Of a stretch of 64,000 nt of DNA, positions 8,876-64,000 are shown piece by piece. This DNA is from Octopus vulgaris (lineage: Eukaryota). The position numbers and the translations under genes were made by a program. Positions within the stretch are counted from its first letter, which is position 1. Each line of letters begins with the position of its first letter. The notes under the pieces are model-generated. The model was not told the DNA's origin. It worked only from the letters and a program-made list of their open reading frames with translations, and searched no databases. The DNA lies in contig OX597820.1 in NCBI GenBank assembly GCA_951406725.2, positions 28,272,001-28,336,000 on the forward strand, given 5' to 3'.

Positions 8876-9030
8876 AAATTTCCCCAAGACACCTGATTAA
8901 GGCTGGAGGAAATATCAGCCGAAACGCTGTGTTAACAACAAACAAGATGAGGACAAATATCCGTCAAATATAAATAATGTAAATAATGTAAATAATGTAC
9001 ATTATTCCTTATCTCTTAAATATAAAACAT
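8876..9030 (+). mobile_element. 5'-truncated copy of the HHR-bearing tail of 18060-18420
   Basis: aaatttccccaagacacctga...gaggacaaatatc...cttatctcttaaa is shared with 18274-18415. Its HHR (8888-8933) carries core mutations (CTGATTA; GAAACGCT). Confidence 0.85.
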
Positions 9031-9124
9031 ATCATTAGTATTATTAATCATTACTTAAGATAATTATATTCTTGTTGCGTATTTAATTTTAATCTAAAGA
9101 TTTTATATATCAGGTACAAAATAT

Positions 9125-9275
9125 TCTTTTCTACTCTAGGCACATGGCCCGAAATTTTTGTGGAGGGGCCAGTCGATTACATCAACCCCAGTGCGCAACT
9201 GGTACTTAGTTTATCAATCCCGCGAAAGGACGAGAGGCAAATTCGACATCAACAGAATTTGAACTCAGAACGATC
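9125..9275 (-). mobile_element. SINE family B fragment
   Basis: Homologous to 21958-22112. Confidence 0.8.
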
Positions 9276-9849
9276 AAGTATAAAATATTGTCATGCCTAC
9301 CGCTACTTTTATTTTTCAAGCATAGAAAGATAAAAATATGAATGACATAACGGTTGGATTTGAACCCAGAACTAAATATTGCGAGACATTTTCTTTTGCT
9401 CACTATCGATTACACATATCACTGTCATATTACAGGATAATGATCTGATATTTATAAAAATATTTAAATCACTCGAGGAAAAACGCAAGAAGATTGTATC
9501 AACACAAATATGTCATTTGTACGCTCTCTCCAATGCTCAGGGGAGGAAATACCAGGTTAAGAGCAATGATGTGAGTGAAGTAGATAAAAAGAGACGAAGC
9601 AAATGCAAAGAGGGTGTTATGTCGAATACTCAATCATTTCCGCTACAACCGTCAGTTTCTTAAGAACATGTTGATAGCTGCTAAAATAGTATGACTTCCC
9701 CACCGATACAATATCAGACATATACAGGAATACCTGGCAAAAACTCATTCATAATAGGAACTAAATTACTGCCATATAAACTGCTGCTGATCAGGTTTCC
9801 CTTGATATTCCAAACATAGGAATCTTGCCATCGAAATTTATTAATATAC

Positions 9850-10420
9850 AGATATATAATCTATTCCCAATACACACATTTTGTGTCATTCACTTTGGTT
9901 GCTGTTTCATATATTATCTCTTCCCCTGCTCTGTTTCAATATGTCTATGAAACTTACCTTCTCTCTCTCACTCTCACTCTCTCTCTCTGTCTCTCTCTCT
10001 CTCTGTCTCTCTCTGTCTCTGTCTCTCTGTAAAATGTACATCAATGACTTACTTGACATTGCATACAACAATACCCTAATTTATATGGATGACGTAAACT
10101 TTGGATAAACCTCATCCTCCTCGAAAGTCTGCCATCAGCACGGAACCTAGGCATCACATGACAAAATTGATTCGATTCCACGAAGACAAATCTTGAGAGC
10201 ATTCTTCAGTAGAAAGTGAATTTAACAGCACATACAAAAAATGTCTCAACTCCACTTGTCAGTGTCCTTCAGCGGGGCCATGCCTCTCTTGTCTATTTTA
10301 AAAAGATAAAAATCAACCAATCAAAAAGCAAAGAAATTAACCCTATCACCAACTAAACATGAGAAGTATTCAACTAGAGCCCAGATGAAAGGCTAGAAGT
10401 TCCTACCGTTAATCGGCTAT
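9850..10420 (+). mobile_element. Degenerate CR1/L2-type LINE RT fragment split by (TC)n
   Basis: MYINDLLDI..LIYMDD resembles the LYINDL..YADD RT motif. Confidence 0.5.
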
Positions 10421-61800: not shown

Positions 61801-62214
61801 GTAAAAAGCAATCTAATGACAAATTCGTCTTTATTGCCAGACATATCACAAAACTAGCAAGAGTAATTTACTTCAGGTTACACAGTCAATGTATCTTTTC
61901 TAAGCATTAAATCAGTTCAAAGCCGAAACATTATTTTAACAAAGGTATTATATCATTTGGCCCAACTGCCGACATATCTTTTATGGTGTTCGTTGAGACT
62001 CATTACTATTCTTTCAGTTAGCAGGAAATTACTATACTTCCTGTTTCGATAATTGCGTATAAATGTTATTCATTCATAGCTAATGTTATTATCGACATAA
62101 GTGAGATAAAATGGATATAATCCTGCAAAGGAACTTGTCAGTATCTCGGACCATTGAAAAGAACTATTCTGAACAAAGAGGATTCACCATTTACCATATA
62201 CTCTATGAATATTC

Positions 62215-62745
62215 CATTCTTCTATAGGCATAACACTTGAACATTTAGGGGACGGGTTTAGGCGATTACATCAAAACTAATATTTATTTCAGCGTCTCCG
62301 AAAGATTGAAAAACAAAGTCGGCTTCGCTAAATTTGAACTCAGAGCATTCAGAACATAAAGATAGATAAAACATTGCTAATCAGTTTTCCCGTGGTTCGA
62401 ATGATTCTGCCAGCTCGTCGCCTTTAATGACATAAGAAGATTGATTTCGATTTTTGGCACATGTCCAACAAATTCAGCTCAGTGGGTAAGTCAATTGCAT
62501 CAACCCTAGTGTTCATCTGATACGTATATTTTCGACGAAAGGTTAAAAGTCGGCCCCACCCCAGAAGAATTTGAAGAAGGATGGGCGAGTCGATTTCATC
62601 GCCCCCAGTGTTCAGTTTGTAATTATTTCATCGAACCCGAAAGTATTTAAGGCAAAGTCGAACTGGGCGGAATTTGAAATCAAAACGTAGCGACATACGA
62701 AGTGCTGCAAAGCACGCTAGCGGTTCTGCCATATCGCCGCCTTAC
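62215..62745 (-). mobile_element. Cluster of diverged SINE family B copies
   Basis: aaagtcg..gaatttgaa.tca and tctgcca.ctcg.cgcctt motifs occur two to three times. Confidence 0.8.
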
Positions 62746-63254
62746 AATGAGATGAAACTATCTAAGAACATTTTCTATATCTTGAATTTGTTTTAGTCGG
62801 TTGAAAGAAACAGATAAAACAAAAATCAAGAGTGATTGAATTTATTAAATATGATTGTATTACTGTTGTTCGAAAGTATAGAGAGGAACAAAGATTTGCC
62901 AATAACACTTCAACTGAAAGTATAAAGTATCTTGCACCAACAACTAAGACATTTATTAAATAATTAATTTGTGATAGGAACGGAATAACACATTTGTTAC
63001 CGAAAGCGGTTGTAGAATTACAGGGCACATTCACTACTGCGAAAAATTGTGATGATATGTACACCTCAGGAATCACACACTGCAATTTAACATAATGTGC
63101 ATAATATAACAACAATAAAGTATATATATGCATGCATATATATGTATATGTGTGTGTGTGTATGTATGTCTATATGCACGTATGTAAATATATATACACA
63201 CACACACACATATATATATATATATATATATATATATATATATATATATATATA

Positions 63255-64000
63255 TTGATAAAAATGGTAAAACAACAAAAGAAAGAGGCCTCGATATTAT
63301 GTAAATAGAGGAATTTATGTGTAAATGTAATATGTGACAATTATTCGGTAGCCATGATAAAACTCCGAGTTTCGGATGCCGAGGTGGAAATCCACGCCGC
63401 CATCTCTTTAGTTATCCGGCCATAGGAAAAATGCTATGAAAAATGACCGTTATACAAAGGGAAATTACTGTGTGATTGACTGTTATTAAGTCAAAAGTTC
63501 TATTTGAATGACCGCTAAGTGAGCGGAGGGAGTAAAAGTAAGGGGGTAAGGGGGCACCATGATCTTTGTAGGATCTTTGTTGTGCGTGCATGTGTCTGTG
63601 CGTGTATAGACGTGTGTATGAACCTTTATGGTGCCTGCGTGTGCGCGTGGAGGTTTGTATTATATACATATACATTTGCCGAATGGTGCGAGTGAGAATG
63701 TGTACGTTTTCAAGTGGGTGTGCGGGCGTGCATGTGTAGGTATGAATATGCGTGCTTACGCGAATACTATGAACTTTTTTACACCCTTACTTTTACTCCC
63801 TCTCCACATTTAGCGGTCATTCAAATATCTCTTTTGTCTTAATAACGGTCAATCACACAGTAATTTCCCTTTGTATAACGGTCATTTTTCATAGCATTTT
63901 TCCGATGGCCAGATAACTGAAGAGATGGCGGAGTGAACTTCCACCTCGGCATCCGAAACTCGGAGTTTTATCATGGCTACCGAATAATTGTCACATATTA
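63255..64000. mobile_element. Inverted pair of PLE terminal repeats without coding sequence (runs off the window)
   Basis: 63328-63545 is the reverse complement of 63785-64000. The left arm is homologous to 16030-16250 and also abuts (TA)n. Confidence 0.9.
63912..63972 (+). ncRNA. Type I hammerhead ribozyme, canonical core
   Basis: GATAA CTGAAGA GATG..CATC c GAAA CTC-g-GAG TT TTATC. The partner copy on minus (63356-63416) has G5A (CTAAAGA). Confidence 0.82.

Follow-up and report, generated by a model that had tools for sequence, protein, structure and literature searches.

Hammerhead ribozymes in a 64-kb stretch of the Octopus vulgaris genome as probable terminal-repeat parts of Penelope-like elements

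Endonuclease-bearing Penelope-like elements (PLEs) of the Penelope/Poseidon and Neptune groups are the closest described relatives of the sequences considered here. In the cited passages of PMC4209133 and PMC8557442, a reverse transcriptase (RT) is followed by a GIY-YIG endonuclease and a hammerhead ribozyme lies in the terminal repeat (pLTR). The same passages describe an extra base after A9, a palindromic stem III, a U3-A8 core variant, many single motifs left by truncated copies, an inverted 5' copy and a tail at one end, a two-armed arrangement that is described in parts of both PMC8557442 and PMC3846280; the microsatellite bias of PLEs is stated in PMC8557442. All of these features recur in the octopus sequences. 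The window analysed here is the whole 64,000-nt stretch from 28,272,001 to 28,336,000 of contig OX597820.1 of Octopus vulgaris; it carries 18 hammerhead motifs and was compared with 2.8 Gb of genome in 227 contigs. That PLE hammerheads sit in microsatellites is already known, and what is new here is the presence of short copies with a fixed start, termed solo leaders below. The load is unusually high. With a probability of roughly 0.7, the hammerheads are terminal-repeat parts of nine coding PLE families and of two passengers without an open reading frame (ORF), and the elements likely produced the short copies with their own endonuclease and RT, priming at fixed internal sites a little way downstream of the ribozyme. 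This reading builds on the family structure, the coding parents, the TA-adjacent 3' ends, the paired arms with one tail and the 5' hotspots observed in these sequences.

Families and coding parents

The C3 positions of the 18 motifs are 8893+, 12439+, 16182-, 18291+, 23614-, 24192-, 25840+, 28358-, 44836+, 48733+, 50338+, 50694-, 50705+, 52565-, 53988+, 58616-, 63411- and 63917+. A first-pass annotation, made from the letters of the window, had listed 17 hammerheads plus a mirror copy in about nine unrelated families; all 18 were found, each within about 60 nt of the position given there, and they do split into families, but into 11 genome-wide repeat families (A to K) rather than nine. Sixteen of the motifs belong to the nine families with Penelope-like coding parents (A, B, C, D, E, F, H, J and K), so the PLE origin proposed in that annotation is borne out. 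Its description of the motifs as lying mostly in short non-coding inserts is partly true, since five copies (three of H, one of B and the C copy at 16182) have RT or endonuclease remnants directly upstream.

Among these five copies, 16031..17039 on the minus strand is a 5'-truncated copy of family C, a young Neptune-like PLE, with a GIY-YIG frame at 16383-16994, a U4C hammerhead at 16182 and its 3' end on (TA)n. Family H is represented by a decayed Penelope/Poseidon-like element at 42661..44967 (+), with RT and GIY-YIG remnants at 42661-44574 and a broken hammerhead at 44836, and by a two-armed insertion at 52400..54142, whose minus arm holds RT/endonuclease remnants at 53856-52968 and a broken core at 52565 and whose plus arm holds an endonuclease fragment at 53510-53650 and a core at 53988. 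The family B copy (47728..48860, +) joins a GIY-YIG remnant at 47728-48057 to a long CA-rich 3' region and an A6U hammerhead at 48733. More decayed Penelope-like RT/endonuclease remnants at 2862-3956 (+) and 4629-4883 (-) are tied to no listed motif.

Genome-wide loci were obtained by searching with one window copy per family, taking the best 40 scored matches from 262-4159 candidates and keeping 20-30 as loci. An endonuclease lies upstream of family C in 30/30 loci, with up to 505 amino acids open and the order RT, Cys-rich linker and GIY-YIG. A same-strand endonuclease is found upstream in 7/25 loci of B, 3/20 of D, 5/20 of H and 1/20 of F, the B and D query sequences each coming from one of the endonuclease-bearing loci counted. 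No upstream coding frame was seen in the top loci of E, K and A, and among loci chosen for long upstream extension one was present in 2/12 (E), 3/10 (K) and 3/10 (A). The RT part was seen for C, H, J and A (for A the thumb only), and for B, E, F and K the endonuclease only. In the Penelope/Poseidon-like parent of family A, the GIY-YIG frame ends just ahead of a tRNA-like head, which is followed by (AAT)n and the ribozyme. The proteins of C and J are 45% identical and C matches the frame from locus L346 at E 3e-7; Pfam recognised RT plus GIY-YIG only in that L346 frame, used as query, and the GIY-YIG of the window frame weakly (E 0.01). Both C and J carry the Cys-rich linker before GIY-YIG that is described in the cited part of PMC8557442, and C, J and K are provisional candidates for the Neptune clade.

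The parent of J is arranged in tandem, measures about 5.4 kb and has a microsatellite-rich 3' region of about 3 kb; the order ORF-repeat-ORF is preserved at L350. Two earlier views of J were set aside: that of a stand-alone 140-nt element, once the ORF-bearing parent appeared, and that of a 3' module carrying LINE or PLE cargo, since the LINE at L347 breaks into just one of the arms and the J endonuclease ends run into the same body in 20/20. At L350 (G000:C1:68810000-68819999) the 3' region is a degenerate TA/CA microsatellite that is 90-98% conserved between copies. One copy of this region hosts an inserted short J copy (mini), and LINE or other PLE frames lie inside such arms at L346-L349.

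Insertion footprints and fixed 5' ends

(TA)5 occurs within 300 nt downstream of 13/17 scorable window motifs, compared with 26% of random positions, and in an unbiased sample within 150 nt downstream of 19/23 non-A copies and 1/10 A copies, with a background of 15%. The association with (TA)n claimed in the first-pass annotation is thus strong for the non-A copies, but family A does not target TA. Among loci in which a terminal motif was found, those without one being dropped, TATATA directly adjoins the 3' end in C 24/24, J 20/20, D 10/11, E 14/16, I 14/17, B 15/19, H 8/12, F 7/12, K 6/12, G 1/6 and A 1/10; the background is 7%. The window contains further ends of this kind: an E/B-superfamily end with a U4C core at 12439 (12432..12560, +; 3' side mapped) is followed by (TA)n from 12561, and a family D end (23529..24040, -; 5' limit approximate), with a U3-A8 core at 23614 and stem III ACCGGT, has its 3' end on (TA)n. 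The limits are approximate for a family F end (25548..26185, +; core at 25840, very long stem II and weak stem I) and for a family K end (58350..58795, -; U4C core at 58616, 7-bp stem II), whose parent endonuclease is labelled Neptune-like by tblastn alone.

Upstream inverted copies are present in 17/30 loci of A, 15/20 of I, 9/30 of C, 9/20 of H, 7/20 of G and 4/20 of K, and are rare in B, D, E and F. An older C-type two-armed insertion at 63256..64000 has a minus arm with its core at 63411 (G5A) and a tail on (TA)n, and a tailless plus arm with its core at 63917 that extends about 15 nt beyond the window. The family J copy is a two-armed mini insert in (TA)n (50564..50765), with a tail on one arm (50564-50633), head-to-head arms at 50634-50698 and 50699-50765, cores at 50694- and 50705+ and an arm junction at the first base of stem I. 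Across the genome, 34/35 two-armed J minis carry a tail on one arm and not on the other, and in 46/47 inserts both arms have the same subfamily allele. A single mini, L328/L329 (G000:C1:2604350-2604397), has different alleles on its arms, which may reflect two RNA templates or a point mutation. In the J copies at L247, L248, L249, L250, L257 and L265, one arm stops at the complement of the predicted cleavage site and meets the other via stem I, which creates a hammerhead whose stem I spans at least 20 bp; these could be cleavage fossils or the product of simple microhomology joining. For family A, a search for target-site duplications returned 13/17, a figure with no chance control in which the clearest 9-13-bp cases alone count.

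The short copies of J, E and A begin at fixed points. There are 3,126 exact genome matches to the J ribozyme (2,613 + 513), and in the first 100 listed, counted by eye, 64 continue into the parent while 34 depart from it exactly one base ahead of stem I (that base being 17 G, 16 A and 1 C), with 2 more breaks in the next 11 bases. The hotspot is preceded by TATAAAT, which starts 29 nt before it, and is followed in the tandem by the ORF, about 180 nt further on. The J junctions are diverse (7 forms in 20), and both parent alleles occur among the minis (18 and 11 of 30), so the minis arose repeatedly. Family E has 222 matches; of the first 100 listed, about 63 start at TCATTT within a 10-nt span, in most cases directly after (TA)n, and 13/19 top copies end within 4 nt of this hotspot. 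Family A has 1,316 matches, and the first 100 listed include about 73 without parent sequence just before the tRNA-like head. The TATAAAT of J, the TCATTT of E and the head of A are taken here, by general consensuses, to be a TATA box, an initiator-like motif and A/B boxes, respectively. The top copies of H, D, B, F and K have scattered or unresolved 5' ends. Several J junctions carry an extra G found in neither parent nor target, on both arms in L360/361, L365/366 and L368/369; in the cited passages of PMC11702581 such a G marks cap copying in LINE-1.

Each form has a counterpart in the window. The family E short copy (24046..24272, -) begins at the initiator-like TCATTT hotspot and has a decayed hammerhead at 24192. 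Family A is present as a solo terminal repeat (18066..18415, +) made up of the tRNA-like head at 18066-18131, (AAT)n, the hammerhead at 18291 and a tail, and as an end piece (8876..9027, +) whose core at 8893 is broken (G8U, U16.1C). At 32273-32452 (-) a family A head is followed by (TAC)n and (AAT)n with no ribozyme module. The head, found in 22/30 loci, places A and B boxes at the 5' end of the repeat, as read by eye, and ARAGORN reported no tRNA in the window. A view of family A as a free, tRNA-derived short interspersed element (SINE) was revised: it is not independent of a coding element, and about 27 of the first 100 listed heads continue into the parent that bears the GIY-YIG frame. A splice acceptor at the J hotspot was also rejected; the junctions keep AG and share no upstream exon. 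The fixed 5' point of the J, E and A short copies is likely to be the element's own transcription start.

A proposed route and its competitors

In the proposed route, transcription would begin in the upstream repeat of a tandem, as the cited passages of PMC2377424 report for the D. virilis element. The element endonuclease would cut (TA)n, and both DNA ends would serve as primers at two neighbouring positions on the RNA, a short way 3' of the ribozyme, after which the cDNAs would be joined; in the part of PMC11167929 cited, which concerns a leader template in vitro, two internal priming sites account for the inverted-arm arrangement. Because the terminal repeat stands at both ends of the tandem transcript, priming would have two outcomes. 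On the downstream repeat copy it would yield randomly 5'-truncated ends (B, C, D, F, H and K), and on the upstream copy synthesis would run off the 5' end of the RNA and leave a solo leader of fixed length (J, E and A). In J, transcription is predicted to begin with the first base of stem I, so that a cut after base 45 would leave the mRNA of the element itself without its cap. The majority of genomic copies are dead on arrival and decaying. A broader proposal is offered tentatively, at somewhat less than even odds: that PLEs routinely copy their own mRNA 5' leader, that the fixed ends of thousands of short inserts form a fossil map of start sites, that the J ribozyme is a cap-removing switch, and that leaders landed in (TA)n regain a TATA-like box and seed SINE-like and retrozyme passengers.

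Several points weigh against this account. The start sites, the cleavage and the transcription are predictions from sequence. At J junctions the other arm can often account for the extra G, and in E no such base is seen. The C hotspot is weak, with about 17 of the first 100 listed (5,196 matches) within 12 nt of stem I. The short palindromes at the J (AGCT) and A (GCCC..GGGC) hotspots could by themselves favour head-to-head joining, and 16 of the 34 J hotspot cases are perfect palindromes (8 insertions counted twice). With regard to the parents, the C and J proteins have no Pfam RT match, the clade labels rest on motifs and blastp rather than on a tree, and the F parent is one locus. Finally, at one G locus an endonuclease on the same strand lies 1.1-1.4 kb upstream; it is treated as a neighbour since no other G copy shares it.

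The main alternative ascribes the 5' hotspots to joining chemistry or RNA structure, through palindrome annealing, self-priming or an RT stop at stem I, and is considered unlikely, though it has real points in its favour. Palindromes also occur near the C hotspot, the cited passages of PMC3846280 attribute palindromes at inverted junctions to self-priming, and some J copies join via stem I complementarity. However, the break falls on the same base where a J copy is joined to (TA)n or unrelated sequence (L352, L367, L377 and L379), the E hotspot is without a palindrome, 80 nt from the ribozyme and single-armed (1/20 inverted), and promoter motifs match all three hotspots.

It is also rather doubtful that the short forms of J, E and A propagate themselves, with flanking (TA)n serving as the TATA box (J, E) or the tRNA-like head driving RNA polymerase III (Pol III) transcription (A). 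Such self-propagation would suit the majority held by short forms among the first 100 listed matches of E and A, the J junctions that are best explained by copying of an earlier mini, and the two-armed A copies that carry the head in the inverted arm. The mixture of parent alleles and of junction forms among J minis speaks against it, as does the -122 kcal/mol hairpin into which the full J mini folds, which would mask both ribozymes.

Quite improbable is the view, in line with the inference of the first-pass annotation, that the families are for the most part non-autonomous retrozymes, which would cleave themselves, form circles and be re-inserted. The large retrozyme-like system it described holds for G and I, but the other nine of the 11 families have coding parents. 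G and I are best described as ORF-less retrozyme-like units that make up 2/18 motifs, with tandem units of about 352 nt (G) and 365 nt (I) in 13/20 loci each, one type I hammerhead per unit, intact consensus cores with a 6-bp stem I and no shared ORF within 1.5 kb flanks; the frequent inverted arms of I also fit a retrozyme. The window holds about one turn of the G unit of roughly 350 nt (28225..28530, -; core at 28358, limits approximate) and a partial copy of the young I unit (50284..50535, +), with an intact U4C hammerhead at 50338 and a 6-bp stem I. For C, H, J, B and D the retrozyme reading is refuted by linked ORFs, and K is without a tandem unit in 20 loci. In addition, the short copies of J, E and A start upstream of the ribozyme and not at the cleavage site, and are therefore not cleavage-to-cleavage monomers.

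The ribozymes themselves are minimal, dimer-type hammerheads of the PLE kind, as had been claimed: 10/11 family consensuses parse as type I (core CUGANGA / GAAA / UH, stems I-III). The F consensus fails this parse, with a very long stem II and a stem I of about 2 bp. The recurrent variants reported before, U4C in four copies, an extra base after A9, a palindromic stem III and U.U at the base of stem II (in F, H and J), are all present, and two others had been missed, the U3-A8 pair of the D core and an A6U fixed in the B lineage and carried by 25/49 B/E copies. In this abundant A6U lineage (window 48733, B loci L061-L085) the stems are retained and position 7 is free to vary. The cited passages of PMC3088659 give U3-A8 as active and U4C and A6C as slow, and do not mention A6U. 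Four window copies have broken cores (8893, 44836, 52565 and 63411), three further copies have broken stems, the B copy has A6U, and about ten window copies look foldable.

Conservation and controls bear on whether these motifs could arise by chance. At pair 4 of stem I, 49 B/E copies have C-G in 21 and G-C in 16, with 42 paired, against a permutation mean of 22 and maximum of 33; the swap reflects one or a few events, so within-family covariation is thin, and most families are too young. Core positions are more conserved than flanks in 10/11 families, most clearly in G (0.955 vs 0.848). A MAFFT alignment across families of 16 window motifs gave no usable structural alignment. Single-sequence folding, which is uninformative for dimer-type ribozymes, recovered stems I and II for I but no hammerhead stems for K or the J leader. 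An exact-core descriptor found 6 window matches against 0.10-0.13 per shuffle (30 shuffles of each kind) and, with one core change allowed, 6 at a score of at least 11 against 0.05 (20 local shuffles). Family profiles recovered 18/18 window motifs, 11 of them members of the profile training sets, with 0 matches in 600 kb of shuffled genome. The window motifs thus exceed shuffled sequence by descriptor and by profile, a control that the first-pass annotation had proposed. An Rfam scan of the window showed no hammerhead among the 150 of 269 matches listed. The 18 motifs are confirmed as real, and chance matching in AT-rich repeat DNA is a practically negligible explanation: the descriptor alone recovers just 6/18 at a score of at least 9 and 600 kb of shuffled DNA yields 5 descriptor matches at a score of at least 8, but the shuffle controls, the C-G/G-C swap in B/E and the U3-A8 of D weigh against chance, and it is refuted by the consensus structures.

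The landscape had been called very dense, and the window, which is 66% AT and rich in microsatellites, is about threefold denser than the genome average, with 6 descriptor matches vs 2.0 expected (P 0.018, uncorrected for window choice). The load, of which the window is a dense sample, is nevertheless genome-wide and not a feature of the locus. In sixty 10-kb stretches at round coordinates there were 33 distinct matches to these families (41 before merging B/E overlaps), some covering part of the ribozyme, which scales to about 154,000 copies (106,000-216,000) in the genome; the descriptor alone gave 19 matches at a score of at least 9 vs 2 in shuffled sequence. Good hammerheads outside the 11 families also occur in this random sample (L294:8745+, L295:1658-, L298:249+, L299:1581- and L310:2271+), so more families exist. 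Two other features of the window are a long inverted repeat with an AT-rich centre at 24904-25257, which has the best Rfam microRNA-like score, below threshold, and a frame with three C2H2 zinc fingers at 48995-49339, probably a LINE 3' end.

Comparison with known systems

A recent octopus repeat annotation (PMC13282606) does not mention hammerhead, ribozyme or retrozyme, and octopus is not mentioned in the cited passages of two studies of animal non-LTR retrozymes (PMC7229834; bioRxiv 10.64898/2026.07.22.740005). In the parts of the literature drawn on here no prior description of solo leaders or octopus hammerheads was found; paper supplements may list the latter. The J ribozyme, within the first 52 bases behind a predicted cap, offers a direct test of a regulatory, decapping role for the hammerhead in PLEs. 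If true, solo leaders would explain the abundance of lone hammerheads in such genomes, would provide a path by which retrozymes and SINE-like passengers could arise from coding elements, and would be a warning that motif counts overstate retrozymes.

Families G and I resemble the retrozymes of those two studies, as far as the cited passages go, in their ORF-less tandem units of 350-365 nt with one hammerhead each, but they mostly form two-armed, PLE-type insertions with 1-1.5 units per arm. The Schistosoma hammerhead SINE-like repeats (passages of PMC6765202) join a Pol III-type head to a hammerhead as family A does; the head of family A, however, belongs to the terminal repeat of a coding element. 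Free terminal repeats with TATA and initiator motifs are also known from the Adineta Penelope solo pLTRs, which the cited part of PMC3846280 ascribes to recombination or deletion, whereas the octopus ones bear the marks of retro-insertion and fixed starts.

The PAc Poseidon of Anolis (PMC11167929, cited passages) is alike in the extension of both strands, the two internal priming sites that define the tail and the AT-rich target, and its ribozyme is dispensable for insertion in vitro. Unlike that system, in which the same passages contain no solo leaders, the octopus copies suggest frequent priming on the upstream leader in vivo. Finally, the octopus elements differ from the endonuclease-bearing PLEs of the cited passages of PMC4209133 and PMC8557442 in their tails, which reach about 70 nt, in 3' regions that are rich in microsatellite and 1-3 kb long, in a lineage in which A6U is fixed, and in the fixed 5' ends of the short copies. 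Compared with the approximately 4,000 motifs counted in coelacanth and 9,000 in Xenopus in PMC4209133, obtained with a different descriptor, the octopus load is far higher.

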